A model generated the notes under the pieces. The model saw nothing but the letters and a program-made list of their open reading frames with translations, was not told the origin of the DNA and did no database searches. Positions 3,711-33,116 of a DNA stretch of 64,000 nucleotides are shown here, one piece after another. The DNA is from Candidatus Bathyarchaeia archaeon (GTDB taxonomy: Archaea > Thermoproteota > Bathyarchaeia > Bathyarchaeales > Bathycorpusculaceae). The stretch's first letter is position 1, and each line of letters begins with the position of its first letter. Location of the stretch: NCBI GenBank assembly GCA_049512935.1, contig JBEKWR010000002.1:96001-160000 (forward strand), written 5' to 3'. The translations under genes were made by a program, and so were the position numbers.

Positions 3711-6700
3711 CTAGTCGCATAAGCATTTGTAGTCGCATTGGGTGCATTCCCATGTGCCTTTTTTGGGCTCAAACGCTGCTGCCTTAATTTTAGCTGCCAT
3801 ATCTGCGATTTCGGCTTGCATAGCATCAATGGCTTGTTTTTCAGGTTCGAAAAACACTTTTTCGTTTGAGCGCAAGAACCAGTTTCCGACCTTCAATGGA
3901 TTGCCATCCGGATAGATCTCTTTGACGGCAAGCGCGTAAACTAGCATCTGCATGTCCTTTTTGAGTTCATTTAGCGATGGCGCCTTCTTGCTGGTCTTAT
4001 AATCAACTACGGTGAAGCCGGATCCGTCCTTGTCGATGCGGTCAATTCGTCCTCTTAGTTTAACGTCGCCGATGGATGTTTCAAACCAGCGTTCAATATC
4101 TACGATCTCCGTCGTGCTTTTTCCTTGCTCATCCAGAAAAACCTTCAAAATGGCCTTGGCTTCATCGTAATCTCTCTTTTCATCAATCTTTGATTTGTAG
4201 CCTTTTGGATCCCAGAATTTGGCTAAAAGATCCAGAGCGACTGCCTCGTTGATGTCTGAACCGTATTTTTGCATCCTGGTTAATTGCTCCGCGATACTGT
4301 GAAGCGTGGAACCGAAGTCAAAGTAATATCTGGGCTTTTCAGGAATCTTCATGACATGACGGTACTGGTAGAGCCTGGGGCATTTTTTGTAACCGACAAA
4401 TTGTGATACGCTAAAAACGTGGTCCTCGGTGACTGTAAACGGTAGCTCTTCACAATGCTCAAGTGTTGAGTAGTCAGGTTCAGCTATCTTTTCTATCAAT
4501 TCAGTCTTGATGTTGAGGTTCTTATCGGTTGATTTTGCGTAGAGAAGGACATCTTGGATTGCTTCTTTGAATTTGTTGGTTGTGAGATTAGACATTACTT
4601 GTCTCATGAGGCGTGTTTGTGTTTCGTCTTCTATTGTGGTTGACTCAGTTGGTATTTCTTGAGAGTCAACTTGGTTAAAGACAATGTTTTCATTGTTCTG
4701 ATAGTCTATTTCGGATAGGAATCTTGAGGGTTTTGAGTCGGTCTTATTCTCGCCGTACCGTTTGGCATAAGTTACAATCAGCCTCTCTTTTGCTCGGGTA
4801 ATGGCTACATAGAAGAGCCTTCTCTCTTCTTGGATATGGAGTTCTTTTTCTTCAAATTTGGATTGGATGCCTTTGAGCAGTTCTTTTGGTATGGCGAATT
4901 TGTCCCTTTGATAGGTTGTTGGTAGCCTGCGTTCAATAACGTCTGGAATTATCACTACTGGGTATTGCATGCCTTTGACGCCGTGAATAGTGGAGATGAC
5001 TACGGCTTGTTCCTCGAGGTTCTTTTCTTCGATTTCGAAGTTTGCGGCAAAGGATAGGTAATCAGTGAAGTCTTCGATGTCGTTATTTGGATAAATGCTG
5101 TCAAATTCTTCCGCAAACTCGTAAAACTGGTTTAGAAGCTGGATATTTCGGTCATTTTTAAGCGCTATTTCGTACTTATAGAATTCCCTTTCAAAGAGCA
5201 AAGTGTGGATTAGATCGAGTGTTCGTAGTCTCTTCTTGGATCCAAGCATGTCAGCGAGAGTGTGTTTGACTTGGAGGAACTTGAATTTGTCAACGTCTAT
5301 CTCATTTAGGTGGTCGAAGACTTCGTACAGTGAAAGTTCGTTTTGGTCTGCATAGCAACTGAATTTGCAGATATCTATTTGTTTGATGCTGAAGTTTTGG
5401 CGGTTTAGGATCCTGACGATTTGGGCGTTGCTTTCCAGCGGGTTACTGATTATTTTGAGGTATGCTGAGACGTCTTTTATTATTGGTTCTTGGAAGAATC
5501 CGGTTTCGCCGACAAAATTGAACCGTATTTTTTGTTTTCTGAAGGCTTTTATTATTGGTTCAGCGGTTGCTCTTCGCCTGCACAGAACTGCTATATCTTG
5601 CAGGGGATATTTTTTGAGGAGCTCTTTTACTTCTTCAAGAATATAGTTGGCTTGCGAGCTGTCGGTTGGAGTCTCGATGACTTCTACCTTTTCTCCTTCA
5701 GGGTTGTTTGTAAAGAGTCTCTTAATTGTTCTTTCGGGGCTATTTTCTATCAGTTTGTTAGCCACAGCTACTATTTTTTTGATGCTACGGTAATTGTGTT
5801 CCAGCGCTTTTTCGACGTAGTTGGGGAACATTTTTTTGAATTCTGCAATGTTGGTTAGGTATGCGCCTCGAAAGCGGTAGATGCTCTGATCGTCATCTCC
5901 TACTACGGTAATATGGCCGTGCTTGCTAGCGATGAGATAGACAATCTGCAATTGTATGTAATTTGTATCTTGGAATTCGTCAACTATAACAAACCTGAAC
6001 TTTTCTTGATAGTTTCGCAGAACGAGCGGTTTGTTTTTCAGTAGATTGAGTACTGTGCAGAGCATGTCTCCAAAATCTATCATGTTATTTTGGAGTTTGT
6101 AGTCTTCGTAGGCACGATAGATTTTTAGAATATCTTTTAGGTTGTTTAGGTCTTCTTGTGCTTCTTCGTCAAGTGAGGCTTTTTCCTGTTTCCCGATGTA
6201 GTGCTGTATATCGTCTGGGCTTATGGCTTCGTCTTTGCATCTTGAGATGAACTTTCGCATTTCTTCCGCTAAGGTGTAAGGTTCATGATTAAATTCCAAA
6301 TGTTCAATGCCAAATCGGTTAATGTTTTTAGTTAGATAGACCAGTTGAGCGGTGTCTGTGATCACCTTAAAGTTTGCATTAAGTTTAGTGTTTAGAATAT
6401 TGTCTTGGATGACTTGGTTGCAGAACGAATGAAAAGTGGATATGCTCAGGTCCTCAGAGGTTTCTAGCATACCCATGACCCTTACTTTAAGTTCCTCTGC
6501 AGCCTTCTGATTAAATGCCAATGCTAGTATGTTCTCGGGTTCTGCACCCTGTTGGATCAAATAGGCGATTTTGCTAGCAACAGTAAGTGTCTTTCCCGAT
6601 CCGGCACCTGCAATTATTAGAAGTGGGTTATCAATTTCTCTTACAGCTTCTTTTTGTTGAGGATTTAAGGAGGCAAATATGTCCTCTGTTGTTTCTGGTA

Positions 6701-6722
6701 ATCGAGAGTTTGCTGATTGCAT
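3711..6722 (-). CDS. UvrD/PcrA-family SF1 helicase fused to RecB-like PD-(D/E)XK nuclease with 4-Cys cluster
   Basis: AGAGSGKT, VDEFQDTN, VGDDDQSIYRFRGA, EERRLFYVAITRAK; C-terminal CPR...GRIDRID...DYKT...Q..Y...CTQCDYKCLC. Confidence 0.92.
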   Translation of the reverse strand: MQSANSRLPETTEDIFASLNPQQKEAVREIDNPLLIIAGAGSGKTLTVASKIAYLIQQGAEPENILALAFNQKAAEELKVRVMGMLETSEDLSISTFHSFCNQVIQDNILNTKLNANFKVITDTAQLVYLTKNINRFGIEHLEFNHEPYTLAEEMRKFISRCKDEAISPDDIQHYIGKQEKASLDEEAQEDLNNLKDILKIYRAYEDYKLQNNMIDFGDMLCTVLNLLKNKPLVLRNYQEKFRFVIVDEFQDTNYIQLQIVYLIASKHGHITVVGDDDQSIYRFRGAYLTNIAEFKKMFPNYVEKALEHNYRSIKKIVAVANKLIENSPERTIKRLFTNNPEGEKVEVIETPTDSSQANYILEEVKELLKKYPLQDIAVLCRRRATAEPIIKAFRKQKIRFNFVGETGFFQEPIIKDVSAYLKIISNPLESNAQIVRILNRQNFSIKQIDICKFSCYADQNELSLYEVFDHLNEIDVDKFKFLQVKHTLADMLGSKKRLRTLDLIHTLLFEREFYKYEIALKNDRNIQLLNQFYEFAEEFDSIYPNNDIEDFTDYLSFAANFEIEEKNLEEQAVVISTIHGVKGMQYPVVIIPDVIERRLPTTYQRDKFAIPKELLKGIQSKFEEKELHIQEERRLFYVAITRAKERLIVTYAKRYGENKTDSKPSRFLSEIDYQNNENIVFNQVDSQEIPTESTTIEDETQTRLMRQVMSNLTTNKFKEAIQDVLLYAKSTDKNLNIKTELIEKIAEPDYSTLEHCEELPFTVTEDHVFSVSQFVGYKKCPRLYQYRHVMKIPEKPRYYFDFGSTLHSIAEQLTRMQKYGSDINEAVALDLLAKFWDPKGYKSKIDEKRDYDEAKAILKVFLDEQGKSTTEIVDIERWFETSIGDVKLRGRIDRIDKDGSGFTVVDYKTSKKAPSLNELKKDMQMLVYALAVKEIYPDGNPLKVGNWFLRSNEKVFFEPEKQAIDAMQAEIADMAAKIKAAAFEPKKGTWECTQCDYKCLCD

Positions 6723-6850
6723 GTCAGTCTTTTAAAAGCGATTCTAAATTTAACTCTTCCCTGAAGACGCTTTTTTCAGGGTTGATTTATCTCGACTATC
6801 GCTTCTCAAAAAGTTTCTAATTAGCGTACAAAGTAAATGCCATAGTCCAA

Positions 6851-7285
6851 TTACACTCTGCAAATTAGTCTGTGGCATTGGTTGGTTTTCATTACCTTGA
6901 CGCCCTTTTTTGCCAGTTCCTTTTTCACGTTACCTTGAAAATCGCTATCCTCTGAAACAAGGATTTTATCAGGAGTTCTTATAGAGACACAAGCGAAACA
7001 ATTATCCATTTCCTGTAAATTGCCAATTTGGAACCCTATCCCCGGTCTCTTTTTTACTTTATTTCTCAATCTCATATTCATAAACCAAGTTATAAGCGTC
7101 TGATTACCATTTAAATGAGGATTGTATTCTCGTTCAACAATTTTTCCTTCGTTATCAACGGCGATAGATTGATTTTGATCATTAAGGATTCGCCAAATTA
7201 ACTCGCTAGCTTCACTGTTGAAATCACTGCCGTGCTTGGGCGTTGCTAATTCCAAAATATTCGTATCAAGAACCAACATCACCAT
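6851..7285 (-). CDS. PIN-domain protein (putative RNase effector)
   Basis: LVLDTNIL N-terminal motif, E in EREY, MDNCF, LVSEDSDF acidic set; overlaps upstream ATPase. Confidence 0.7.
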   Translation of the reverse strand: MVMLVLDTNILELATPKHGSDFNSEASELIWRILNDQNQSIAVDNEGKIVEREYNPHLNGNQTLITWFMNMRLRNKVKKRPGIGFQIGNLQEMDNCFACVSIRTPDKILVSEDSDFQGNVKKELAKKGVKVMKTNQCHRLICRV

Positions 7286-8642
7286 TTTCGACTTCCTCTG
7301 AATGCTTGTTTGTTTGTGCCTTCAGGTGCTGCATGGTTTCTTGCAAGTCAGTTTCAAAAAAACCTGCAGGCCAGTATTCTATGTTTCCGTTTTTATCAAA
7401 ATCAATTCGCTTGACAATTGTGCCGTTTGAATCTAAAGTAAATTCGTACAAAACAATATCTTCCCTTTTCAATTCGCCTTCTGCAATTCTACGCGCAAAT
7501 CTTAGCATCATGTGTTCACTGTGAGTCTCTATTACAGAGGTCTTATCGCTTTTGGCTAGATCAATAAATAAATCAGCTAATTCAGCCTGAGCTTTGGGGT
7601 GAAGGTGTATTTCTGGCTGTTCGATTAGTAGAAGCGTACCCTTCTTAGCCGTTATTCCTTCTGTAACGATCGGCAGTACTTGTGAAATGCCGAAACCAAC
7701 GTCTTTTAAGTTATCGTTAGACCCGGTCCGCATGTTTTTAAGTTCAACTTTCCAGATACTCGCTTTGGGAGAAAGTTTTTCAATCGTTATACTCTCTGCC
7801 ATTTCGAATTTTCTGAACCAGTAATTAATTTTGCGAATATTCTCTTCATACAAGGAATACAAGTAATCTATTGTTTTCTCGCCTCGAAGACCTACGTCTG
7901 AGGGTTTCTCGCCTGAAGATATGTAGTACCTTTTGGGATATTCTCTGAGAGGGCCTAAGTATAAGAGAAATTCTTGGAAATATTCTTCGATTGCATTGGG
8001 ATATCTTCTTAGCCAAAGTTCATTGATCATAACTCCCTTTGTCTCTAAGGGCATAGAAACAGACCACATAAAATGTCTCTGGGTAACGAAAATACGACTT
8101 GTTCTAGGCTCTTGTAGACTTTTATCTGACGAAATTTCAATTGGTGTCTTAAGATCTTTATTGAAGAGGCTGACTATAACCTTATTTTCAACATTAATAA
8201 GGGAATCTGCCTCATTTCGATTCACTTTCAAATCTTTCAGGAAAATTGTTTCGCTTCTCTCGTCATATTTTACTCGGAAAGTGATTGAATGTGGCAAAAA
8301 TCTGGAAATTTCAAAGATAGAACTGTTTTCGCTGCTATTTGGTGCCCTAAGGAGTAGGGCAGAAAAGCCTTTTTTTGAAAAAGTAAGCCCTACCTCAATT
8401 TCATTCTCTATTTTATGTCCGTAAACAACATCTCGGTAACTGCCTAGTTGAACTAATGGTCCTTCTAAGATTAAGGGAGATTTATCGCTGCGACTACTCA
8501 ATGTTTGCTTAAGAGTCGTCAACAGAGAAATTAATGAAGATTTGCCGCTGTTATTTGGACCTATTAACAGTGTAATCGGTTTAATCTCAAATTGCGCATC
8601 GTGCAGCGATCTGAAATTCTTCACCTTAATACCATTCAGCAA
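7266..8642 (-). CDS. ABC-type AAA_15/AAA_21 ATPase with DUF3696-like C-terminus
   Basis: KNFRS, Walker A GPNNSGKS, signature DVGFGISQ, Walker B/D-loop LLIEQPEIHLHP, ETHS, C-terminal WPAGFFE. Confidence 0.88.
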   Translation of the reverse strand: MLNGIKVKNFRSLHDAQFEIKPITLLIGPNNSGKSSLISLLTTLKQTLSSRSDKSPLILEGPLVQLGSYRDVVYGHKIENEIEVGLTFSKKGFSALLLRAPNSSENSSIFEISRFLPHSITFRVKYDERSETIFLKDLKVNRNEADSLINVENKVIVSLFNKDLKTPIEISSDKSLQEPRTSRIFVTQRHFMWSVSMPLETKGVMINELWLRRYPNAIEEYFQEFLLYLGPLREYPKRYYISSGEKPSDVGLRGEKTIDYLYSLYEENIRKINYWFRKFEMAESITIEKLSPKASIWKVELKNMRTGSNDNLKDVGFGISQVLPIVTEGITAKKGTLLLIEQPEIHLHPKAQAELADLFIDLAKSDKTSVIETHSEHMMLRFARRIAEGELKREDIVLYEFTLDSNGTIVKRIDFDKNGNIEYWPAGFFETDLQETMQHLKAQTNKHSEEVENGDVGS

Positions 8643-16200: not shown

Positions 16201-16636
16201 GGGCTAAACGTACGCTTCCGCTGGGGCTTGCTTCTAGTGTTCCCGATGCCGCGTGGAGTCCACCGTATCGCTTTGCTTGGGTACTAAGTTCTTTTAAAAG
16301 GGTAATAATATTGGTTGGAAGTTGCGCTATGCCACGTGCTGTTGCTCCGTCATCAAAATGCGTATCTACCCACAGGGCTCGAAGCATTTTGACCATGTGT
16401 GATTTGCCTGAGCCGAAAAAGCCGCTTATCCAGACGCCGGGCTGCTTTGGTTGTTCTATATTGTTGAGAAATGTCTCAAGGATGTGTTCCAGCCCTCTGG
16501 CATATTCTCCCTCGCAAACGAAGGTTTCAAGTTCATTTCTGAGTATCGAATTTGCTTGGTCGTTGACATGTGCCACTCCATCGTTGGCGAGTTTATGAAG
16601 GGTTGGATCCCTTAGGTATATTTCTTGGTTTATCAT
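13214..16636 (-). CDS. brxC: BREX P-loop ATPase
   Basis: ELETFVCEGEY, WISGFFGSGKSH, LDEIQQFIG, PPYGWSRD; 1140 aa. Confidence 0.93.
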   Translation of the reverse strand: MINQEIYLRDPTLHKLANDGVAHVNDQANSILRNELETFVCEGEYARGLEHILETFLNNIEQPKQPGVWISGFFGSGKSHMVKMLRALWVDTHFDDGATARGIAQLPTNIITLLKELSTQAKRYGGLHAASGTLEASPSGSVRLALLSIIFESINLPEKYPFARFVMWLQHEGIYETVRHTVEQSGLNWEEELANFYVAEELHKALVKAKPNIFPTQSACAEILKNFYPNVQDVSSEEMVKAIRQALNKDGKFPLTLVALDEIQQFIGSDTQRSLDVQEVVEACSESFGGKLLFLGTGQTAITGTSNLRKLEGRFTVRVELSDTDVDAVIRKVILAKKPSAIDPLKKIMQTNIGEISRHLSGTTLAHKQEDFNYFVQDYPILPVRRRFWESIFNVLDPTASQLRNQLSMVHKAIQSNITKEIGNVIPADYLYFDSADKMQQFRVLPRNVYEKTKSWKNDPSEDKRLLARACGLIFLINKLESSNREIGIKANVDTIADLMVEDLNEGSSSLRNKLPGLLDGCKELIIKVRDEYRIQTAQSAEWSNEFQNQRAALINESSHRIESERDDRIRSHFSKLVKTLQINQGNSNVPREIHPTFDPQLPTDSDKKVYVWIRDGWSIDDASVLADARQARDQSPTIFIFIPKRSADDLRQNIIDYKAANATIEKKGLPDNPEGKEAYAAIETIRRTADSKIEELLDDVFSGARVYQGGGNEIPGSNLQEMILDASEKSFQRLYPQFDTADDAGWGAVYIKAKQGSPDALKTVHFDGEPAKNPVCKAILGYIAGGKKGTEIRTYFEDPPYGWSRDAVDGGIQVLLICNLILAQDERWQIVDPKDLERKAIGKATFKIESILVTTDQRLQIRKLLQHAGIATKPGEELANTESFIEKMEELATNAGGDPPKPAQPDKLIIDEIRRTAGNEQLLAIYNRSEELTKKFDEWTALAANIQKRWESWLSLKELLQYTDDIKESEATKQQATAIEEHRLLLAEPDLISPLIRPLEDALRKEITQYNKRYTIEFTNQNQLLERDSSWKELTQTSQEEIKEKSNIAEIDEITIGTREDVIEELKQHPLHSWNDRIDALAGRFERARELAAKELEPKTQIVKIPRRTLKTEEDIESWLEEVREKLKAALNKGPIVIQ

Positions 16637-19600
16637 TTTTGAATCCTCGAGTTACTTTGAATCATTTTCTCCTCTGCTGTACGTTTCTCAGATAGGCTTA
16701 GATGGTGGTCATTTATGCGGTCACCCGCATGTCCACCATACGATGGACCTAGTTTAAACCATGGTGCGGATTCTACATCTCTACCCCTATCTTTATCCCA
16801 AGTAATATTAGGTTTATTACGTAGCACGCCTGCGCCTTTCTTTCCGTCTGGCATAGTCACGAACGGTCGAATGTTTACTCTTACACCGTCGTTTAAGTCA
16901 GGAGTCCAGCCGATAGGTTGCTGTTCAATGGGTTTCCACCGCACAAAAATGTCGTAAGGCTTTTCGCCTTTAAGAATAAGTTCCAAGCGTTTCTTCAGCC
17001 CTTCGGCGGCGTCTAATTTTGTTTCCGCTCCATCTACACCGCGAGCCTTCTCTTGTCTCTGTTGGCTAATCCAGTCGCCCAAGTAATTATAGATTAAAGT
17101 TTCCAACAGCTTGTAGTCCAATTTGTGATAGTTCACAAGAGCCGCAAAGCCATCATTTAGGCCATCCCAAACATGCCAGATGAACGGTCGATCATGGAAT
17201 AGCCTACAATGTTGAATGAAGAACTTGTCTCTTAACCAAGATTCTAATGTCTTACCCGTATGGTCCGCTTGAGCTAGCAACTCCGCTTTTTTGGCTGGTG
17301 ACCACTCAGCACCAAAAGCAGCTGCGAGAAGGTTTTCCAAACGATCTTCAGCTTTCTGTTCTCCCCTTATGGATGGAATACACACAACACCGTTCACATC
17401 AGCAAAGGACAGCAAGGCATTTGTCTTCTTTAACCATGAGTTCGTTTCGCTCGAAAGCTCCATTTTGCAATTAAGTTCGCCAGGCCATCGATAACCTAGC
17501 AGGCGAGCTATTGCAATATGTAAATGATGTTGCCCTTTAGCTGGATTTCCGTGGAAGACCCATTGAGTTGGATCTTCAGAATATGGTTTAGGCAATCCCA
17601 TCGGATATTTTTCCTTAGCGATTGCTCTCCAGCATTCTATATCAAATGGTATTAACTTTAAGTATTCATTATCAACGCTCAGTTTTTGATTCACTTTTCG
17701 TACATCCTGTTCAAAACTACCGCTCGAACAGTAACTCCAAATCGATTCTAAATCTTCGGGATTATTTGGGATTAGGATTGCCGCATTATCGTCAAACAAC
17801 TCTCCTGTATAAATTGTTGCAGATAAGCCAGCGACCCGACTGACAGAAACGCCTCTTTTACCCCAAGCGGTATTTCCTCTAATCCATGCGCTGATGTTGC
17901 CGTCTAGCCTTTCCTTAACATATTTTACGAATTCGCCCGCACCATCTTGCCAAAAAAGAATGCCTTCCATACCAGAAAACATGTTCGTTTCACTAACAGA
18001 AGTACGAAAATTAACCCAGCCATTGGCAAGCTTTGGCTGTTCCCAGAAGTATTGGATGAATCGGGCTGAATCTCCAGTACAAACGCCTTTACTCGTTGTC
18101 AGATAATTGCTCAGCAATTTGCCAGCGCTTAATTCTATACGAGAAATGATGCTTTTAGGATTATGCAACTGTTTTAATTGTGAGAGCGTAAGTATTGAAG
18201 CATCCGCTAGTCTTGATGCTTTCAACTTTGAACCGGTTAATGTAGATACATCAATTCCTGTAAAGCTTGTATTGCTTTGTGGTGGCGATTTCCCGATCAC
18301 TAGAAGTATAGCCTTCACAACTTCGCCGGATATTGAATCAAAAGCACCAGGACCTAGCCACGTAATTGATTTCCAAGTATTTCTTGACAGTAGGCGTTCT
18401 CGAAGCTTTGTGTAGCTTGACAGAAACAACCAATTTTGAGGAAGAACGATGCTTACATTCCCATCATGAGAACAATAATCAAGACATCGAGCAAGAAATA
18501 CGGTCGCTAGGTCATTGTCAGCATAGTCGTAGTTTTTCCTTCCATACTCCAGAAGCTTCTCAGATTGCTTGCCCGCTCCGAGATATGGCACGTTTGTAAT
18601 TATCCACTGATATTTCATGGCAAGTAGTTGAAAGGCTTTCTCCATCCCGTAGACATTTATGCCAATGTTGTTTTCGTAATTCTTTTGCTCATCAAGCTTT
18701 GTTTTAATAATTTTTACGATTTTTTCCCAATCATTGGCAAATAGACTACCTTTTTCAAAAGATATCATAGGATTGAGTAAGCTACCCAATATTGGCGCGT
18801 CTTTAAACAAGGAATAAAGCCTGTCTAAATGTGATCTTAAGTCAGGGTCATCTTCGGCTAGGGTCAACCATTCTTCTCTTTTAATGTTGACTGATTGACC
18901 GCACCATGCAATCTGCAACTCAGGTAACTCTCTGTAACCACCTGCATCTGGATATTTCCATGCCGTTAGTGCCAAAGCAAAGGCAGAAAGCTCAACGCAA
19001 CGCTGATCTATTTCTAGCCCATACAAATTCTCTTGCAAGACTGCATCACAGGCTTTTCTGGCAGAAAGCCCTTCAAGTTCCATTCGCATAGGAACAAGCA
19101 TTAGAAGCGCGGATACTAAAAAGTGACCTGATCCACAGCACGGATCAAGAGCTTTAAGTTCGCTCAAGAGTTTAGGCCATTCGTCAAAAGTTCCAGCCGT
19201 AGGCGCCCATAACCCGTCTTTTTTTACAAAACGCAAATATTCTAAGGGAACGCCTGGCAATGAGGCCTTAAGCCTCAGCTCTTCTTCACTTTTTGCGGCT
19301 GTCAAGTCGTCCTTTCTTAGCCTGTGAAATGCCCACCAGGCACCCAGAGCATTATCCAGCAAATAATTTACCATGTAGGGTTCAGTGAAGAGTTGAGTTA
19401 CTGCAGGCAACTCACGAGAACCGATTTTCAACTCTGATGCGTTCACTTCATCTTTTTGCTTGGCTTGCCAAAACTGGTATACCCAACCAAGAGAATCAGA
19501 CGCAGTGAAAACCTCAACAGGCAACGCATCTAGCAGTTGCTCTAACTCTTGCTGACGCTCAGGAGGTAAGGATAATTGAAATACAGGTGAATTATGCCTA

Positions 19601-20037
19601 AATATCTGTGGAAGCATCCGTGCTGCATAGCGGGCTGCGAGTTCCCAGCCGTTCTTTGCTCCTTCTTTGGCTGCCAGGTCCTCGCATTCTTCAAGTGTTA
19701 TGGGAACCGGATTGGCTGGGTCAGGATACATCAGGAGATTATTTTCGGCTAGAAATCGGGCAAAAAGCATTCGGTGCCAGTGCTCATAAGCGACTTCCTC
19801 GATAAGTCGTTCCATTGTCTGAGTTTTTTCGCCGTTAAGCGAATCGCCCAATTGGCGACCGTGAACTCTAAGTTTGCGTCTTAACTCACGCTCTTCTTCT
19901 GTTAGGTGGGGGAAAGGGTTGGCTTCTCCAACACCTAACTGCTCTAACTTGTCTTTAGCGGCTTTTTCAGCGACTCCTCGTGCTTCTCGCACGGTTCTTT
20001 CAAGCTGATTCCTCAATGCTTTATCTAACGGTTTCAT
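16633..20037 (-). CDS. pglX: BREX N6-adenine DNA methyltransferase
   Basis: PAVTQLFTEPYMV, SAM motif LDPCCGSGHF, catalytic TNVPY, C-terminal PDLNDGVRVNI. Confidence 0.92.
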   Translation of the reverse strand: MKPLDKALRNQLERTVREARGVAEKAAKDKLEQLGVGEANPFPHLTEEERELRRKLRVHGRQLGDSLNGEKTQTMERLIEEVAYEHWHRMLFARFLAENNLLMYPDPANPVPITLEECEDLAAKEGAKNGWELAARYAARMLPQIFRHNSPVFQLSLPPERQQELEQLLDALPVEVFTASDSLGWVYQFWQAKQKDEVNASELKIGSRELPAVTQLFTEPYMVNYLLDNALGAWWAFHRLRKDDLTAAKSEEELRLKASLPGVPLEYLRFVKKDGLWAPTAGTFDEWPKLLSELKALDPCCGSGHFLVSALLMLVPMRMELEGLSARKACDAVLQENLYGLEIDQRCVELSAFALALTAWKYPDAGGYRELPELQIAWCGQSVNIKREEWLTLAEDDPDLRSHLDRLYSLFKDAPILGSLLNPMISFEKGSLFANDWEKIVKIIKTKLDEQKNYENNIGINVYGMEKAFQLLAMKYQWIITNVPYLGAGKQSEKLLEYGRKNYDYADNDLATVFLARCLDYCSHDGNVSIVLPQNWLFLSSYTKLRERLLSRNTWKSITWLGPGAFDSISGEVVKAILLVIGKSPPQSNTSFTGIDVSTLTGSKLKASRLADASILTLSQLKQLHNPKSIISRIELSAGKLLSNYLTTSKGVCTGDSARFIQYFWEQPKLANGWVNFRTSVSETNMFSGMEGILFWQDGAGEFVKYVKERLDGNISAWIRGNTAWGKRGVSVSRVAGLSATIYTGELFDDNAAILIPNNPEDLESIWSYCSSGSFEQDVRKVNQKLSVDNEYLKLIPFDIECWRAIAKEKYPMGLPKPYSEDPTQWVFHGNPAKGQHHLHIAIARLLGYRWPGELNCKMELSSETNSWLKKTNALLSFADVNGVVCIPSIRGEQKAEDRLENLLAAAFGAEWSPAKKAELLAQADHTGKTLESWLRDKFFIQHCRLFHDRPFIWHVWDGLNDGFAALVNYHKLDYKLLETLIYNYLGDWISQQRQEKARGVDGAETKLDAAEGLKKRLELILKGEKPYDIFVRWKPIEQQPIGWTPDLNDGVRVNIRPFVTMPDGKKGAGVLRNKPNITWDKDRGRDVESAPWFKLGPSYGGHAGDRINDHHLSLSEKRTAEEKMIQSNSRIQK

Positions 20038-20591
20038 GAATACAAATCCTTATCAGCTGTAATGGGAAAGGCAAGGTAATTCCAGCCATCATACGCATTA
20101 AATAAACGGTAATTATTATGCTCATCATAGGTTCCGGGGAAAAAAACCAGTAACCTTCCTTCAAAAGCAGGCGCCAATGCATTAACAACTTCTTTCACTT
20201 TTAAAAATCCGAAAAGTGAACCAACACCCTTCAAAGCAACAACCGTATTTCTATTTATTTTGTGAGCTTTAAGAAAGCAATCAAACTCTTTCTTAATAAA
20301 TTCAAGATACTGGGGCAAGAGAGCCGAAAGAAACTCGGGGTTCTTAAAATAACTCTTCTTGTAACGTTGATTTGCAAGCCACACTGCAAAAGTGTCAGTT
20401 AGGTCAAAGACAGCCCATTCATGTCCAGCTTGTTTAGTTACAATTTCGAACTCATCAATCTTGGCTCTAAGCTGAAGTTCATCATCCTCTTTATAAACGC
20501 AAAAAATAACGCGTTGAGGGGCAGCGACATCTTCCCAAGGTAGAGCAATATGAACATTGTACTTTTCAATAAGTCGCTTAATTCTGTTCAT
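20034..20591 (-). CDS. brxB: BREX BrxB (DUF1788)
   Basis: GVGSLFGF...GRLLVFFPGTY...YRLF...NYLAFPI; position before pglX. Confidence 0.85.
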   Translation of the reverse strand: MNRIKRLIEKYNVHIALPWEDVAAPQRVIFCVYKEDDELQLRAKIDEFEIVTKQAGHEWAVFDLTDTFAVWLANQRYKKSYFKNPEFLSALLPQYLEFIKKEFDCFLKAHKINRNTVVALKGVGSLFGFLKVKEVVNALAPAFEGRLLVFFPGTYDEHNNYRLFNAYDGWNYLAFPITADKDLYS

Positions 20592-21378
20592 GAATCCACT
20601 CCCTTTCTTGTGCGGTTAACAAATTTGGAAACTGAACCTCCATAACCTTTCCTATGCGCTTAAAGTTAATCCAGCCTCGACGTGAAGCATCTTCCGCCAA
20701 CTCCACCGCACGTGCAGATGAGCAATCCAGCAACTTTGCGAATTCTGTTGTGAAGAGAGCTTCGCCCCGTACACCGCAAAGATAACCTAAGAAAAGGGCG
20801 TATGCAGTGGACCCCACCGTGGCTTTTGCTTTGGTTCGAATCTTGTTTTCTTTTTCGATTAGGTGTCCTGATTTTGTCCAGGTAGCGCTAAGGTTTCTAA
20901 CAACCGATCTAAGCGAAACTTCAGTGAAACGGTTTGGGTTGTCTCGGTTAATGTATTCTTCGAGTTTTTCCTTGTGAAAGGTTTCTCCTTCTGCTAGCGG
21001 TAGAATCACAGGGGCGCTCATTCTTACCAAACCATCACGCGCATAAGCAGAAAGCAAAGCCAAGAGTGGTCGTCCAGCAACGTCTCGGTCCCAAAAATAC
21101 CTCAGAGCCCTAAACGTGGTGATTGATGGGTCTAAACCATAAAGAAAACCAAGATGCATGCTTGTGATTTTTCTGGTTTTTTCAGAGCGTTTGCCTAAGC
21201 AGTTCTCTTCCACAATAGCCTTAAGATAATCACTCTTGACGGAATTAGGATTGATCACGCACGATAACAAAGCTTGAAGGTCGTCAAGCATCATTGAACG
21301 TGCCGCATGCGTGTTTCCTTTTTCCAGGCGAAAGCCGAAACGAGACAAGATATCACTGTTAAGGTTGGGGTTTTCCAT
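20578..21378 (-). CDS. brxA: BrxA-like DNA-binding protein, first gene of BREX operon
   Basis: EENCLGKRSEKTR, LLALLSAYARD, WTKSGHL; overlaps brxB. Confidence 0.7.
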   Translation of the reverse strand: MENPNLNSDILSRFGFRLEKGNTHAARSMMLDDLQALLSCVINPNSVKSDYLKAIVEENCLGKRSEKTRKITSMHLGFLYGLDPSITTFRALRYFWDRDVAGRPLLALLSAYARDGLVRMSAPVILPLAEGETFHKEKLEEYINRDNPNRFTEVSLRSVVRNLSATWTKSGHLIEKENKIRTKAKATVGSTAYALFLGYLCGVRGEALFTTEFAKLLDCSSARAVELAEDASRRGWINFKRIGKVMEVQFPNLLTAQEREWIHEQN

Positions 21379-21495
21379 GCTTCACGAGCCTCTATTCCCC
21401 CTGCGTCTCGTTAACAGGGCGATCGGAATGCTGCCATCAACGTTACTGCAGGAGAGTTTTGATACTGTATGCTGAGTTTCTTATTTAGAACTTGC

Positions 21496-21503
21496 TATTT
21501 ATA
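21496..21503 (-). promoter_or_regulatory. Probable TATA box of BREX operon
   Basis: TATAAATA on minus strand about 120 nt before the brxA ATG. Confidence 0.45.
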
Positions 21504-21584
21504 GGTAAATCAGGAGAACCTGAATTGCCAAAGGATATTAGGAAACTACGACTAACTTAGGTCTGCGACAAGCCTTACACCTTA

Positions 21585-22160
21585 GTGAGAGCGATGAATA
21601 AAGAAGAAGCGAGAGCAATTGTTCGTGCAAACTTGAAGGGCAAGAAAAAGAAGGAAGCACCGCTACTTGTTATTGCTGAAGCGGTCAGATTACTGGTGTC
21701 CGACCGAGAGTTTGGATCAACCACTAAACTTGCAGACAGCTTTAGTGTGAAAAGACCGACGATAGAATCTTTTGATAAAATGAATGATCAACCCGTTGAA
21801 GTAAAGAAACTTATTAAGGAAGGTAAAATCGGTATTGACAACAATCCTAAATTAGCAAGCATCGTTGATGTGCAAAGACGAATCGCGGTAGCTTATACCA
21901 TAGCAGGCCTAAGAACAAGGGATGCACGGGAAATAATAGCTAAATGCAAGAAGGACTGCAATCTTGAACCTGAAGAGTGCAAGAAAGCCATTATTAATGT
22001 TAAACCGCCAAAGAAACCGATAAAATCACTGGCAATACCTTTAGAACCAGAGGAACATTCTAAATTTTTTGAAGCATCGAAAAAAGCTGGTCTCAGCCCA
22101 AAAGAGGCAGGTAAACAAGCTATCGCTGAATGGGTTAAAGAGCAAGAAAAAAGCAGCTGA
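21585..22160 (+). CDS. Putative DNA-binding protein (HTH/ParB-like helical region + C-terminal RHH-like)
   Basis: TTKLADSFSVKRPTIESF HTH-like; IKSLAIPLEPEEHSKF...GLSPKEAGKQAIAEW CopG-like; divergent from BREX. Confidence 0.5.
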   Translation: MRAMNKEEARAIVRANLKGKKKKEAPLLVIAEAVRLLVSDREFGSTTKLADSFSVKRPTIESFDKMNDQPVEVKKLIKEGKIGIDNNPKLASIVDVQRRIAVAYTIAGLRTRDAREIIAKCKKDCNLEPEECKKAIINVKPPKKPIKSLAIPLEPEEHSKFFEASKKAGLSPKEAGKQAIAEWVKEQEKSS

Positions 22161-22163
22161 CTC

Positions 22164-22910
22164 TTAGATTAAGCACTCACTGCTACAGAGTCTTTTGACG
22201 TAGACATCGGGTAGGGTCTCTTTCTTCTCAAGTTTTTCCTGCAAAGTTCCGAGCGTCCATTTCATTAGCCGCTGTTTAGGGAAATGCTTTGAATTCTCTT
22301 CTAGCTCTTTTGCCTTCATAAACAGGTCCTTATGTTTTTCGTAAATCTCGGTCCATCTCGATAAAGAATTGAACGGACAGAAGAAACAGCCGCTTCTCAC
22401 AGGCATTGAGAAATCGAAGTCTGAGAGCAAGATTATGTCCATGCACTCTTGGCGTGCAATCTGCTTCTCAACTAGAGGGAAGACATTCTTAACGTAGGGT
22501 ACTCCGCTTTCCTTCATGCGGTCTCTTTCTTCATAGGCTATGCCAAGATACTGGTTTACGGGAACGCCAAAAGACCGATAGTGCGAATAGATGGGCGTTA
22601 TCTTGTAGTCACGTGTGGACCAGCGCCAAATCTGTGAGGGTATGACTTTTCGGCGCTTGCAAGTATCATACAGCGTCCCATTCTTAGACCTAACAACCGT
22701 CAACGGTACACCGTGTTTGCTTAAGTAAGAATCAACTGTCTTCAAGTGCTCATAGGTCTCAGGCACCTCGGCGCCCGTGTCGGCGAAAATAACCTCGTCT
22801 AAAGGGTACTCCTTCTCAACGAGCATAATCATAAGAGCCGTCGAATTTAGTCCTGCACCGAAACTAAGAACATACTTCTCATCAGGCTTTCGTTCAAGCA
22901 TTACTGCCAC
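22164..22910 (-). CDS. PAPS-reductase-family (adenine nucleotide alpha hydrolase) protein
   Basis: PP-loop-like SFGAGLNSTA, FADTGAEVPETY, SGCFFCPF, C-terminal CSSEC; possible start ATG 22901. Confidence 0.8.
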   Translation of the reverse strand: MAVMLERKPDEKYVLSFGAGLNSTALMIMLVEKEYPLDEVIFADTGAEVPETYEHLKTVDSYLSKHGVPLTVVRSKNGTLYDTCKRRKVIPSQIWRWSTRDYKITPIYSHYRSFGVPVNQYLGIAYEERDRMKESGVPYVKNVFPLVEKQIARQECMDIILLSDFDFSMPVRSGCFFCPFNSLSRWTEIYEKHKDLFMKAKELEENSKHFPKQRLMKWTLGTLQEKLEKKETLPDVYVKRLCSSECLI

Positions 22911-23034
22911 CGCTTGCAGGACACTATCCTGCGCATGCAGGACATTATGGATTGTCCTGCAATAAAAAATTTTCTAGCCTACCGCTTGAAAAGTTGCCTT
23001 TAGCTGATAAGAATTGGGCGGTTATAGAAAAAAA

Positions 23035-23202
23035 TTATGTCTTGGGTATGGTAAAGCCAAGTTTGCCCTCATGATAATACATGAATGTAGTTTTCTTGCA
23101 GTTGGAACACGGATAGGCTTTAACTTGATAGTAGCCTTTTCTGAAAGGCCATTCTTTCGAAGGCTTGTTAGGTAATTCAGAGCCACATCTTGGACACTTC
23201 AA
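23035..23202 (-). CDS. 55-aa Zn-ribbon micro-protein (not in ORF track)
   Basis: MKCPRCGSELPNKPSKEWPFRKGYYQVKAYPCSNCKKTTFMYYHEGKLGFTIPKT; TTG start, GGTGA SD, TTTATAT box upstream. Confidence 0.7.
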   Translation of the reverse strand: MKCPRCGSELPNKPSKEWPFRKGYYQVKAYPCSNCKKTTFMYYHEGKLGFTIPKT

Positions 23203-23294
23203 GGCAATTCACCAAGCCTATGTTTTAGCATAAGAAGGATATAAATTAAGGCACTCTTTCTTTTGCCTGCTCAGCCACCGAAGGTTCGTTCCCC

Positions 23295-24107
23295 TTATTG
23301 ACGGATCAGATCCATTTGCTCTTTCGTCAAGAGATTCGGAAATTGAGCTTCCATTACATCCTCTAACCGCTTAAAAGAAAGCCATCCCCGAGATGACGCA
23401 TTTTCCGCCAGAGCAATGCAATCATTCACTGGCGAGTCGAGCAAGTGCATGAACTCAGTTGAAAATAATTGCTTTCCACGACTTCCCAATAAGTAACCAA
23501 GAAAAAGGGCGTATGAAACAGAACCCTCTGTAGCTACAGCCCTCGAACGAGTCCTTCCTGCTCTCTGTATATGGCCAGACCGAATCAGACTTCCACAAAC
23601 ATTTCTAACCAATCCACCCAGGCAGAACTCGCTCAATCGACCGGCTGCTTCCTTATCAAGAAACTCTTTGAAAGCCGTTCGATCAATAACTTCCCCTTCC
23701 TTAAGTGATAAAATGTACGGGACGCTCATTCGAAGCAAGCCATCCCGCGAATATGCACTGAGCAATGCTAACAAAGGTTGGCTGCTGACGCCTCGTGTCC
23801 AGAAATATCTAAGAGCTTGAAAGGTAGCAACAGATGGGTCGAGTGAATAAAGAGTCATTAAATGCCTTGCTGAAAGCTCCCGATTTTTCTGTGACCTCTT
23901 CCCCAAGCAATTATTCTCTATAATTACCGTTACATAATCTCCTTTCTGAGCGTCTGGAGATGGAACGCACGAAAGTAGCGTCTGGAGTTCTTCAAGCATT
24001 ATTGTTCGACCGATGTGTACGCCGCTCGGGCCCAAGCGGAACCCTAGCTTTCTAAGAACTGATTTACTAGCTGTGGTTTGATTATGTTCTGCAAGCTCAC
24101 TTAACAC
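23295..24107 (-). CDS. Second BrxA-like paralogue
   Basis: Full-length similarity to 20578-21378 (GFRL, ENNCLGKRS, LYSLDPS, ALRYFW, YALFLGYL, FPNLLT). Confidence 0.75.
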   Translation of the reverse strand: MLSELAEHNQTTASKSVLRKLGFRLGPSGVHIGRTIMLEELQTLLSCVPSPDAQKGDYVTVIIENNCLGKRSQKNRELSARHLMTLYSLDPSVATFQALRYFWTRGVSSQPLLALLSAYSRDGLLRMSVPYILSLKEGEVIDRTAFKEFLDKEAAGRLSEFCLGGLVRNVCGSLIRSGHIQRAGRTRSRAVATEGSVSYALFLGYLLGSRGKQLFSTEFMHLLDSPVNDCIALAENASSRGWLSFKRLEDVMEAQFPNLLTKEQMDLIRQ

Positions 24108-26683: not shown

Positions 26684-27055
26684 GTGACTCCTCTTACTTT
26701 TTCCTTGGGTTCGCCTGTTTATATCCGCTATAAAGACCACGTTCTCTTCAAAAACATTCAGCAACCCATGGAAGAAGCAATGGAGAGGGAAACCATCGGC
26801 TGGCTATCAAGAGAAAACGGCGAAATAATTCTCGTCGAGCACGACCGAACAATGCCAAATGCTGAACTCTGCAGCGGTCAAAGCAACGGACTAATTATTT
26901 TAAAGAGCTGCATCATAGAAATCCGCAAGCTACCACTACAAGAAAGTTCAAAGTGGCACTTAAATTCTCAAGAAACTACAGATAAAGCAGAGTATGCGCT
27001 TCAGCCAAAGAAGCGAAAAACTCCAAAAAGAAACAGGACGGGAGCAAAAAAATGA
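26684..27055 (+). CDS. Hypothetical protein (small beta-rich) coupled to integrase
   Basis: ATGA overlap with the integrase start. Confidence 0.55.
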   Translation: MTPLTFSLGSPVYIRYKDHVLFKNIQQPMEEAMERETIGWLSRENGEIILVEHDRTMPNAELCSGQSNGLIILKSCIIEIRKLPLQESSKWHLNSQETTDKAEYALQPKKRKTPKRNRTGAKK

Positions 27056-28587
27056 AAACCGTAACCATAACGGAGAGCTCCCGAGGCACCAAACTGCAAA
27101 AACCACTAACTCTCACCTTGCCTGAAGCAGAGACAGCCGCAGACAAAAAGCTCCAACAATACATAATCGACGCATTACTAACCAAAATGCCAAGCCTCGT
27201 AACCTTAACCTTCCAAAACACCACAACCATAGAACTAGCAAAACACCTCTTACGTCACAGAACAGGCAGCCCAGCCACCCTCTACCAATACATCTACGGC
27301 GTCCACCGCTTCAGTCTCTGGACAAACACCCAACCCGACCAACTTGTCAAAGCCTGCCAAGATCAAGACGGAGACCCAAAACCAAAAGCTCTTTCGCAGA
27401 CTAGCCGCATGCTAGATGACTTCGTCGCCAACCTGCAAGCCGAAAACTTGGCACCAGGAACCGTAAGCAATCACGTTAAGGGCGTCAAAGCATTATTCCG
27501 CTGCAACGGACTAAAACTTGAACTTCCTTACAATCTGAGTAAAAGAAGCGTCTACGAAGATAGAGCACCAACACCTGAAGAGCTACAAAAAATGCTCGAC
27601 TTAGCCGATCTACGCGAACGAGTAATAATATCGCTACTGGCGTTAGGCGGATTTCGCATCGGCACTCTATCCAAGCTACAGTATCGCCATGTCAGACGCG
27701 ACCTAGAAAAAGGCATAATCCCAATCCACGTGCATGTTGAATCAGAGATAACCAAGGGCAAATACCACGACTACGACACATTCCTGGGACTGGAAGCAGC
27801 CGAATATCTCAAAGCCTACTTGGACTTACGAAAACAAGGCAGCCCAACAGGGCGAAAACAACCAGAAATTATCCACGACAACTCACCATTAATACGCGAT
27901 GGACAAAGCAACCTTGCCAAACCAATAACAACAGGCAGAATTCACTCAGTTGTCCACAACCTCTACGTCAAAGCAGGATTAGTAACCAGCAACCCTCGAG
28001 GAAGACGCTACGACCTAAGAGCCCACAGCATTCGCAAATACTTCCGGACACAGCTAGCCGCACTTAGCATTCAAACCGATTACATCGAATACATGATGGG
28101 ACACACAATCAGCACCTATCACGACATACGCATGAAAGGCATAGAATACCTCCGCGGCGTATACATCTCCTCAGGCCTAAGCATAAAACCAAAAACTCGC
28201 CTAAACAAACTTGAAGCCCTCAAAGAAATGATTCGCGCATGGGGACTCAACCCTGACCAAGTGATGTCCAGAGAAGCATTAGCGCAATCCAATGTAACCG
28301 TCATAGACCGAGCCCAACTAGAACAAACTCAACTGACACAATTAACAGCTGTTTTAAAGCAGCAGATGATCAAAGAAATATACGAGAGTCAAGGTCAAAA
28401 AAGTATGAATTCACGCCTGGGACAAAGTAGCCCGGGAGAGATTCGAACTCCCTTAGGGGCAGTTTTCAGGCGATTTATTAATTTCAGTCATTTCTATAAT
28501 CTCATTGGTAGACGTGGTGGCAATTTGGGATTAAAAGGCTTCTCAACCACAATAAGAGCTTCAAGATTCCAGAACAGGACACAATAG
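27052..28587 (+). CDS. Tyrosine recombinase/integrase
   Basis: Catalytic R (GFRIGTL), K (ITKG), HxxR (HSIRKYFR), H/Y (MMGHTISTY); 3' end crosses the att site. Confidence 0.92.
   Translation: MKTVTITESSRGTKLQKPLTLTLPEAETAADKKLQQYIIDALLTKMPSLVTLTFQNTTTIELAKHLLRHRTGSPATLYQYIYGVHRFSLWTNTQPDQLVKACQDQDGDPKPKALSQTSRMLDDFVANLQAENLAPGTVSNHVKGVKALFRCNGLKLELPYNLSKRSVYEDRAPTPEELQKMLDLADLRERVIISLLALGGFRIGTLSKLQYRHVRRDLEKGIIPIHVHVESEITKGKYHDYDTFLGLEAAEYLKAYLDLRKQGSPTGRKQPEIIHDNSPLIRDGQSNLAKPITTGRIHSVVHNLYVKAGLVTSNPRGRRYDLRAHSIRKYFRTQLAALSIQTDYIEYMMGHTISTYHDIRMKGIEYLRGVYISSGLSIKPKTRLNKLEALKEMIRAWGLNPDQVMSREALAQSNVTVIDRAQLEQTQLTQLTAVLKQQMIKEIYESQGQKSMNSRLGQSSPGEIRTPLGAVFRRFINFSHFYNLIGRRGGNLGLKGFSTTIRASRFQNRTQ
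28426..28452 (-). repeat. att site: imperfect copy of tRNA-Gln 3' end
   Basis: AGTAGCCCGGGAGAGATTCGAACTCCC versus AGTAGCCCGGGAGAGACTCGAACTCTC at 33042-33068 (25/27 identical). Confidence 0.88.
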
Positions 28588-32976: not shown

Positions 32977-33043
32977 ACATCGATTAGGCGTGGATTCATA
33001 GACGTTTTTGTGGTCAAGTTGTAACCGGAAAAGTGCAACGTAG

Positions 33044-33116
33044 TAGCCCGGGAGAGACTCGAACTCTCGTCAAGGGCTCCAGAGGCCCCTATGCTTGACC
33101 GCTACACCACCGGGCT
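33044..33116 (-). tRNA. tRNA-Gln(CUG)
   Basis: AGCCCGG acceptor, anticodon arm GGGGC-CTCTGGA-GCCCT, T arm GAGAG-TTCGAGT-CTCTC; upstream TTAAATAT box. Confidence 0.95.

Follow-up and report, generated by a model that had tools for sequence, protein, structure and literature searches.

A PAPS-reductase-family gene in the 5' leader of a type 1 BREX operon of a Bathyarchaeia archaeon: a probable inserted module with a candidate DNA 'writer'

Bacteriophage exclusion (BREX) is among the commonest anti-phage systems. To our knowledge it is not settled how these systems discriminate self from non-self beyond the methylation by PglX, and BrxA has no agreed role. Both matters come together in a stretch of 64,000 nucleotides from Candidatus Bathyarchaeia archaeon (assembly GCA_049512935.1, contig JBEKWR010000002.1, positions 96,001 to 160,000), here called the window. 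A PglX-containing BREX cluster is preceded there by a second BrxA gene (brxA2), a small Zn-ribbon gene (ZnR) and a PP-loop gene of the 3'-phosphoadenosine-5'-phosphosulfate (PAPS) reductase family. What does such an enzyme do in front of a methylating BREX? The original prediction, which was made from the DNA letters alone, saw a hybrid with dedicated adaptors: BrxA2 and ZnR would serve the PAPS-family protein and the operon's own BrxA (BrxA1) would serve PglX, so that two modification arms share one BrxC/PglZ core. The analysis described here leads to another answer. With a probability of roughly 0.55, the PAPS gene and its neighbor p191, coding for a ParB-like helix-turn-helix (HTH) protein, make up an autonomous and self-regulated 'writer' module that has been inserted into a type 1 BREX with an ancestral brxA2-ZnR-brxA1 leader. 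The module would then work self-contained beside BREX, and not through BrxA2.

The coordinates confirm that brxA2, ZnR and the PAPS gene lie on the same strand, just upstream of brxA1-brxB-pglX (Table 1). The predicted gene content was right as far as it went, but p191, a convergent plus-strand gene situated between the PAPS gene and brxA1 and separated from the former by a 3-nt gap, had been left out. The estimate that the two BrxA proteins are about half identical over their whole length, and intact, also holds: the end-to-end alignment has 130 identities in 258 positions (50%, E 1e-99). Neither BrxA is recognized by Pfam or NCBIfam, and both are matched by the PADLOC model PDLC02450. The cluster behind them is a complete type 1 BREX, with strong PADLOC and NCBIfam matches for brxA, brxB, brxC, pglX, pglZ and brxL in one cluster. 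This arrangement is not an assembly chimera, because contigs from other public runs cross every junction from brxB to brxA2 without differences. The stretch brxB-brxA1-p191-PAPS is bridged by X4 record 4 (20097-22247), PAPS-ZnR by X4 record 5 and X6 record 21, and ZnR-brxA2 by X4 record 6. Contigs from four DNA runs contained no deletion or insertion-free variant; as contigs drop rare variants, the absence of such variants is not implied.

The same gene order is found in a lineage related at 94% (L190), and the comparison with this lineage reveals purifying selection on every gene measured in the hybrid arrangement. The dN/dS ratios (omega) range from 0.08 to 0.24: 0.11 for the PAPS gene, 0.15 for p191, 0.17 for both BrxA2 and BrxA1, 0.08 for BrxB and 0.24 for ZnR, the last of these being derived from only 4 changes. 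A value of 0.15 is obtained when BrxA2 is compared to the A2-like part of a chimeric BrxA from another genome (G032, see below). The neutral evolution of brxA2, which had been named as an outcome that would speak against a hybrid, was thus not what was found.

The origin of the leader becomes apparent from its relatives. BrxA2 was searched for in 401 genomes of the class, 4 of which gave a match, and in 332 of the family, with 6 matches (G000 counted), supplemented by five metagenome loci. Orthologues of 62-94% identity are present in G477, G236, G032, G401, L190 and L191, and the brxA2-type proteins P0123, P0124, P0125 and P0128 share 74-83% identity. In G477, brxA2 (86%, with one frame change) is followed by ZnR (96%), brxA1 (63%) and brxB, and the gap between ZnR and brxA1 measures 237 bp and holds no PAPS gene. 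G236 displays the order brxA2-brxA1-brxB-pglX-brxC-pglZ-brxL, with ~100 bp between the two brxA copies and an upstream p87 region that is syntenic with the window. A single chimeric BrxA is encoded in G032 (locus L089, 4830-5696) and in L193, being A2-like over ~200 residues and A1-like after a shared SYALFLGYL segment. Such a chimera is the product expected from recombination between tandem copies, and it is evidence that the tandem brxA genes recombine and delete the DNA between them. In G401 and L191 fragments of brxA2, or brxA2 and a remnant of ZnR, persist without BREX, while G554 has two degraded tandem brxA copies. ZnR is 98% identical in L190 and reduced to a truncated remnant in L191. 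The PAPS query found no match in any of the five genomes G477, G236, G401, G554 and G032 (completeness 92-97%). It is only in the window and L190 that ZnR and brxA1 are separated by the PAPS gene and p191. Where genomes were checked for both a BrxA2-like and a PAPS gene, that of the window alone holds the two, adjacent to each other.

Judged by these comparisons, brxA2 and ZnR belong to the BREX lineage and not to the PAPS module. Because brxA2-ZnR-brxA1 and brxA2-brxA1 occur without it, the PAPS gene together with p191 is most simply read as an insertion of ~1.45 kb, at about 21585-23034. The spacer between ZnR and brxA1 of G477 aligns with neither side of this insertion, which leaves the exact junctions unfixed. 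In the proposed course of events, the older brxA2-ZnR-brxA1 tandem would have been the 5' end of a complete Bathyarchaeia type 1 BREX (with PglZ of type B), and the insertion would have added the convergent p191 and the PAPS gene, the latter equipped with a TATA box and a GCAGGA operator of its own.

These observations are difficult to reconcile with adaptors dedicated to the PAPS-family protein. It is true that brxA2, ZnR and the PAPS gene keep the same strand and order in both the window and L190, that selection maintains all of them, and that a PAPS domain and the BrxA-like DUF4007 are naturally fused in BrxP, according to the available text of PMC12839542. The tandem nevertheless exists without the PAPS gene in G477 and G236, and the A2-type N-terminal part is found in the sole BrxA of G032 and L193. 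Moreover, the 14 PAPS-BREX loci of Chloroflexota described further on have one BrxA each, no homologue of ZnR was detected in any other PAPS locus (L007-L169), and the PAPS gene has its own putative promoter and operator, 124 bp downstream of ZnR, and is usually accompanied by ParB proteins. The adaptor model is hence very improbable. As a separate possibility, brxA2 was considered as the duplicated attachment-site fragment of a mobile element; this was rejected, because several species conserve the gene, which is of full length and has diverged by 50%. It may be added that many genes in G236 (L086) and G554 (L188) are broken by stops or frame changes, including brxL, pglX and both brxA copies, which reflects either decay or indel errors of long reads.

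If brxA2 and ZnR are not the partners of the PAPS gene, which genes are? A scan with one genome per species yielded 68 loci, whose partners were scored by tblastn. At 40% identity or more, 47 loci remain: 27 are linked to a ParB_N/ParB-HTH pair and 15 to BREX, while the remaining 5 have neither link or are truncated at a contig end. Neither the ParB pair nor BREX accompanies the 21 loci of lower identity (27-37%), which have a canonical SGGKDS motif. In three congeners of the window's organism the PAPS gene is 74-85% identical, and no BREX lies within the 12-20 kb that was fetched. One type of congener cassette combines the enzyme with a ParB_N protein (271-274 aa), a ParB-HTH protein (189-191 aa) and a protein with an AlwI-like nuclease domain (313-315 aa), whereas a second type consists of p103, ParB_N, ParB-HTH and p222. 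The insertion of the window would thus represent the 'writer' half of a mobile cassette, in which the same conserved enzyme is elsewhere combined with a swappable trio of ParB_N protein, ParB-HTH protein and small nuclease. The homology of p191 to the cassette ParB-HTH proteins is consistent with this (31% identity to the p191 of L009, E 3e-17), and the cassette proteins themselves match PF17762 at 3e-9. The convergent layout of p191 and the PAPS gene is shared with loci of Nitrosopumilaceae. The partners diverge far more than the enzyme does, with 24-36% identity to homologues for p191 versus 45-85% for the PAPS protein. The ParB_N protein and the nuclease are missing from the window, and the module may therefore be a remnant; the sole strong ParB_N match in the genome is located on a different contig. 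A description of the ParB/PAPS cassette was not found in the literature searched, which included the available text of PMC10853773.

Some further features of the cassettes were noted. A third layout joins ParB_N and HTH proteins to a protein of 131-143 aa without a family match. Cassette loci were found in Bathyarchaeia (L007, L008, L013-L016), in Chloroflexota (L027, L028, L037-L039, L046, L047) and at L009-L012. An 8xMP-family membrane protein precedes the PAPS gene in six loci. PADLOC v2 sees only the PAPS member of the cassette, which it labels SspD/BrxP.

Evidence for an autonomous module comes from its putative promoter. The operator pattern directly in front of the PAPS gene has 3 matches in the window against 0 expected, and forms the only palindromic cluster of the GCAGGA hexamer in the 2.3-Mb genome. 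Of 44 subfamily loci, 33 carry GCAGGA/TCCTGC at least twice within the 170 nt that precede the PP-loop motif; among 8,355 control windows drawn from these loci, the proportion is 0.6%. Most of the 11 exceptions show variants, such as GCAGGT x4, GGCAGGG x4 and ACAGGAGA x2. The operator arms are intact in L190, where the spacer has changed. The repeats are inverted in Chloroflexota and direct in Nitrosopumilaceae and in a locus of Thermoplasmata, and this mixture argues for a DNA site that is bound by protein, and not for an RNA hairpin. In all 14 BREX-linked Chloroflexota loci of the conserved block, GCAGGAG-N(10-24)-CTCCTG[C/T] follows a -10-like hexamer and precedes GGAGG-ATG; this palindrome, GCAGGAGA-N-TCTCCTGC, occupies the ~85-bp divergent gap between brxA and the PAPS gene in the loci with called open reading frames (ORFs). 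The operator is thus conserved with or without BREX. Over the whole genome, GCAGGA shows neither avoidance nor enrichment (observed/expected 1.01, rank 2337 of 4096) and bears no restriction-type signature.

Since the enzyme is the only protein common to all operator loci, it, and not the ParB-HTH protein, is the presumed recognizer of GCAGG. Both the promoter function and this role as operator binder are read from the DNA and protein sequences, and should be taken as predicted. The enzyme would bind the GCAGG motif in its own promoter and thereby limit its own expression. By analogy with DndC, SspD, BrxP and TdpC, it would place a sulfur-type (phosphorothioate-like) mark at or near GCAGG-type sites.

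How well does the protein itself fit such a role? Its placement in the superfamily of DndC, SspD and BrxP was borne out by PADLOC, in which the SspD model PDLC02782 is matched at E 1.2e-32 (residues 12-233 on profile positions 1-225 of 277) and BrxP at E 1.1e-11, over profile positions 134-247 of 779 only. The deviation of SFGAGLNS from SGGKDS had also been seen correctly, and represents a real and invariant PP-loop variant of the subfamily, S-[FY]-G-[AG]-G-x-N-[ST], to which the canonical SGGxDS motif does not apply; SGGKDS is found only in distant relatives (L060-L076). The invariant residues of the subfamily are S16, G18, G20 and N22 (within SFGAGLNS), D44-T45-G46, C84, S173-G174-C175-x-x-C178-P179-F180, C242 and C246, with five cysteines among them, and all are kept in the window's protein. 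Its AlphaFold model (pLDDT, the predicted local distance difference test score, of 90) places it in the PP-loop or adenine-nucleotide alpha-hydrolase class of folds. The best solved folds (Foldseek, VIA) are PAPS/APS reductases (Z 13.0, root-mean-square deviation 3.6, 170 residues aligned), followed by the [4Fe-4S] tRNA thiolase NcsA (Z 11.9) and GMP synthetase (Z 11.6). By analogy, then, the protein is a putative DNA 'writer'.

A role outside DNA modification must also be weighed. The gene could encode an enzyme of the sulfur-metabolism type or an RNA-thiolating enzyme, or it could belong to a mobile element, with a role in anti-defense or immunity, and simply ride in defense islands. The fold comparison agrees with such a role, with PAPS/APS reductases as best match and NcsA nearly as close, and the CysH-like SFG and DTGxxxPETY motifs point in the same direction. 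In its favor, too, is the likeness to virus-borne homologues, which had been predicted and proved to be genuine: the strongest family match is the phage family phrog_424 (E 1.5e-40), which is classed with the auxiliary metabolic genes. Most of the 554 relatives detected by a protein search (E 1e-5 or better) are stand-alone proteins of 240-270 aa, and relatives on viral contigs number 416, of which only two exceed 40% identity. Integrase and HTH genes are located 0.6-4.5 kb upstream, and a phage PAPS reductase can promote the evasion of Dnd, as stated in the available text of PMC13551039. Yet the protein scores far under the cysH cut-offs (16.6 bits versus 165.1 for TIGR00434, 21 versus 154 for NF002537), no sulfate-assimilation genes are present among the annotated neighbors, the DNA operator is conserved, and ParB proteins, nucleases or BREX are the partners in 42 of 47 loci. 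Taken together, a role apart from DNA modification appears improbable.

The more serious challenge to an autonomous module comes from its recurrence beside BREX. That the PAPS-BREX neighborhood should recur had been anticipated, and it does, in 15 of the 68 genome loci in addition to the window. The careful maximum-likelihood tree comprises 87 rows, after 4 fragments under 200 aa were dropped. The window's protein falls within a Bathyarchaeia clade of 8 rows, the other 7 of which are ParB-linked (support 100/100). L043 lies inside an 8-row clade of ParB-linked Chloroflexota (100/100) and has only the PAPS gene in common with its sister loci. The 14 other BREX-linked rows of Chloroflexota group in a separate clade (99/98) that also includes L035, a locus truncated by the end of its contig. 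The BREX label changes 4 times on the tree, which corresponds to at least three independent captures. Each of them involves a PglX-containing BREX with a long BrxA, and all its proteins are detectably homologous to those of the window. The PAPS gene of these 14 Chloroflexota species stands divergently beside brxA-brxB-brxC-pglX-pglZ. It is the terminal gene of this block: in 11 of 13 comparisons with L019, collinearity stops no more than 7 bp from the PAPS stop codon, and in the two most divergent ones it stops inside the gene, with varying DNA beyond it. Homologues of the ParB trio were not detected in the 15 BREX-linked loci (30 ORF queries from 7 ParB-linked Chloroflexota loci, covering ParB_N, HTH and ~135-aa proteins). 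From the conserved collinear end and the lack of trio homologues, it follows that the PAPS gene and BREX are inherited as one block in Chloroflexota.

This could mean that BREX has replaced the ParB/nuclease trio as effector, or 'reader', of the PAPS mark, giving a functional hybrid without dedicated adaptors in which one BrxC/PglZ/BrxL machine serves two self-marks, the N6-methyladenine (m6A) of PglX and a PAPS-type mark independent of S-adenosylmethionine (SAM). Besides the adjacency that arose at least three times in the 47-row subfamily, the terminal position in 14 species and the missing trio, this explanation gains from the operator in the divergent brxA/PAPS gap. It further gains from the rarity of BrxA2-like genes in the family, given that the one genome with both genes has them side by side. 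A precedent is provided by type 4 BREX, in which the fusion of a PAPS domain and a BrxA-like domain makes phosphorothioate together with BrxC, following the available text of PMC12839542 and PMC12914056. At the same time, defense genes cluster in islands anyway, PglX is retained in all these BREX loci, the BrxC of the window is of the type 1 family (NF033441), the PAPS gene keeps its own promoter-operator, and close relatives run the same BREX without it. A functional hybrid is therefore possible but less credible than the inserted autonomous module.

The reading as an inserted, self-regulated module has its own weaknesses. The three independent BREX neighborhoods, one of them stable in 14 species, speak against a mere bystander role of the enzyme and would favor the functional hybrid. 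A gain in the window's lineage and a loss in G477 and G236 look alike at the sequence level, as the spacers do not align. The identity of p191 to cassette HTH proteins is low, and its own PF17762 match (E 0.01, 16.4 bits) is below the cut-off. The ParB_N protein and nuclease of the cassette are absent here, tblastn with ParB_N, AlwI-like and p222 queries having returned no match in the window. The Lys and Asp of SGGKDS are not present in SFGAGLNS, which aligns with the CysH motifs mentioned above; given the closer resemblance of this variant PP-loop to CysH than to SGGKDS, ATP-dependent adenylation should not be taken for granted. Finally, there is no close solved structure: the best match by sequence is CysH at E 0.012, and the best fold, PAPS reductase, has 14% identity.

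No solved structure was matched by sequence at E 0.01 or better. With the search extended up to E 10, the 270-aa chain 21fy_C (PptA) was found at E 0.026, aligned nearly end to end and including the G...CxxC and C-terminal cysteine region. The literature search did not find a paper that links PptA to DNA modification. PptA may become the nearest structure to the PAPS subfamily once it is described.

Compared to the known systems, the locus most resembles type 1 BREX with PglZ of type B, with which it shares the same six genes, all intact, and PglX as methyltransferase. It differs in the tandem brxA paralogues (50%) with ZnR between them, in the position of pglX before brxC, and in the PAPS and ParB-HTH genes inserted at the 5' side. 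No description of a type 1 BREX with a PAPS gene was found in the searched main-text passages of the 2026 BREX survey (PMC12839542), in which PAPS is discussed for type 4 only. The likeness to type 4 (brxP-brxC-pglZ-brxL) lies in a PAPS-superfamily enzyme beside BrxC, PglZ and BrxL, with a BrxA-like protein encoded next to it. In contrast to type 4, PglX is present, the 248-aa enzyme is unfused and without DUF4007, BrxA2 predates the enzyme, and BrxC belongs to the type 1 family. A general Pfam scan gave no match to DUF6079 (the SspC-like BrxC), the presence of that family in the Pfam copy being unchecked. In type 4, BrxP is a fusion of SspD and SspB whose DUF4007 part has a BrxA-like fold (PMC12839542 and PMC12914056, in their available text). 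In the available text of PMC12914056, BrxP and BrxC suffice for phosphorothioation, and TdpC is cited as sufficient alone in the Tdp system. The preprint of PMC12914056, in the part available, assigns to type 4 an sspD cluster that is accompanied by BREX genes in a Chloroflexota bacterium and that may or may not belong to the present family; the term 'Chloroflex' is absent from the journal version.

With SspD, DndC and TdpC the window's enzyme has in common the PAPS_reduct fold and cysteine-rich motifs, SspD being its best match in the defense library, but it differs in the variant PP-loop and has no solved relative by sequence, and TdpC is likened to it by description only. Among the 15 ORFs scanned (1994-24107), PADLOC matched neither SspA, SspB (DUF4007) and SspC nor any Dnd model, including DndD and DndE. 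The enzyme nests in the clade of the ParB/PAPS cassettes and has kept the ParB-HTH neighbor and the GCAGGA operator, whereas the ParB_N protein and nuclease are absent and BREX flanks the module. The nearest named pair is IbrA/IbrB. IbrA is a PAPS_reduct plus DUF3440 protein and has a ParB_N partner. For the window's protein only PF01507 and no DUF3440 was reported, and it has no ParB_N neighbor, so that it is not of the IbrA type.

A bolder generalization would regard the PAPS-like protein as a single-polypeptide, GCAGG-specific DNA 'writer' that carries its recognition site in its own promoter and has interchangeable readers or effectors: the ParB/nuclease trio in most hosts and, in three or more lineages, type 1 BREX. 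On this view the window contains a dual-mark BREX, combining m6A with a SAM-independent sulfur-type mark. This is speculative and rather doubtful. If true, a dual-mark BREX would naturally link BREX types 1 and 4 and offer a way to study how 'self' is read by these systems. A SAM-independent back-up mark could also be useful against phages that starve BREX of SAM.

Other consequences can be named. The repeated capture of PAPS genes by PglX-containing BREX blurs the divide between types 1 and 4. The series of 5' ends within one genus (A2-ZnR-PAPS/p191-A1, A2-ZnR-A1, A2-A1 and the A2/A1 chimera) can reveal the roles of the second BrxA and of ZnR, and the GCAGGA operator that travels with the enzyme across domains may reveal its DNA specificity. 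Even if the enzyme were unrelated to BREX function, the locus would still be a clean example of how insertions into the leaders of operons build up defense islands.

Table 1. Genes and regulatory elements of the BREX cluster and its 5' leader (window coordinates)
Feature	Coordinates	Strand	Remarks
brxA2, second BrxA paralogue	24107-23295	minus	270 aa; PADLOC BrxA PDLC02450 E 3.3e-82
ZnR, Zn-ribbon ORF	23202-23035	minus	55 aa, CPRC...CSNC, TTG start
Putative PAPS promoter region	22911-22975	minus	TATA-like box and two palindromic operators
TATA-like box, TTTTTTATT	22969-22961	minus	directly upstream of PAPS start
Palindromic operators, TGCAGGACA-N-TGTCCTGCA and GCAGGATAGTGTCCTGC	22914-22962	minus	built from TGCAGGA
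PAPS-reductase-family PP-loop gene	22910-22164	minus	248 aa; likely start ATG at 22901; PF01507 E 3.2e-8
p191, ParB-HTH-like, without ParB_N domain	21585-22160	plus	191 aa; homology to cassette ParB-HTH proteins
brxA1, BrxA heading the BREX operon	21378-20578	minus	PADLOC BrxA PDLC02450 E 5.3e-100
brxB	20591-20034	minus	PF08747; PADLOC PDLC02469 E 1.5e-75
pglX, N6-adenine methyltransferase	20037-16633	minus	PADLOC PDLC02528 1690 bits; Eco57I/N6_Mtase domains
brxC	16636-13214	minus	NCBIfam BREX_BrxC NF033441 877 bits; PADLOC PDLC02489
pglZ, BREX-1 type B	13184-10833	minus	NF033450 BREX_PglZ_1_B E 4e-275
brxL	10836-8785	minus	PF13337, PF20442; TIGR02653 634.8 bits

Within the operon, brxA1 and brxB overlap by 14 nt and the order is brxB-pglX-brxC, not brxB-brxC-pglX. 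PglX remains below the cut-off of the NCBIfam model BREX_1_MTaseX (NF033452, 348.3 bits versus 500) but is matched by PADLOC over its full length, and it is therefore a divergent PglX subtype. While BrxA2, ZnR, PAPS, p191, BrxA1, BrxB and the start of BrxC are 93-98% identical between the window and L190, PglX (16633-20037 versus 11068-14445 in L190) is only 63% identical over the full length. This looks like the replacement of a whole allele of the specificity subunit, and it may be linked to the unusual gene order, as the Chloroflexota loci have brxC-pglX.

Upstream of the cluster, a tyrosine-integrase ORF of 511 aa (27052-28587) holds in its 3' end a 25-bp copy (28426-28450, 1 mismatch) of the 3' end of tRNA-Gln (33043-33116), where the other copy is found (33042-33066). 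The two copies bracket a 4.6-kb segment of low GC content (39-40%) with TrmB-like regulators, which is either a small integrated element or the result of an integrase with an internal attachment site. A third repeat, which might delimit an element carrying the BREX cluster, was not found on the window's contig, and the sole other match (1 mismatch) lies on a different contig. Downstream of brxL, an AAA_15/AAA_21/DUF3696 ATPase is encoded at 7266-8642 (PADLOC NsnB/HEC-03B/PDC-M55A, E about 1e-69), with an overlapping ORF of 144 aa. Together with a fusion of UvrD helicase and PD-(D/E)XK nuclease (3711-6722), an ORF of 343 aa without family match and a DUF6946 protein, it forms a defense-type stretch at 3711-8642. 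In G554, a homologue of this UvrD protein (about 80% identical) directly adjoins the tandem brxA copies.

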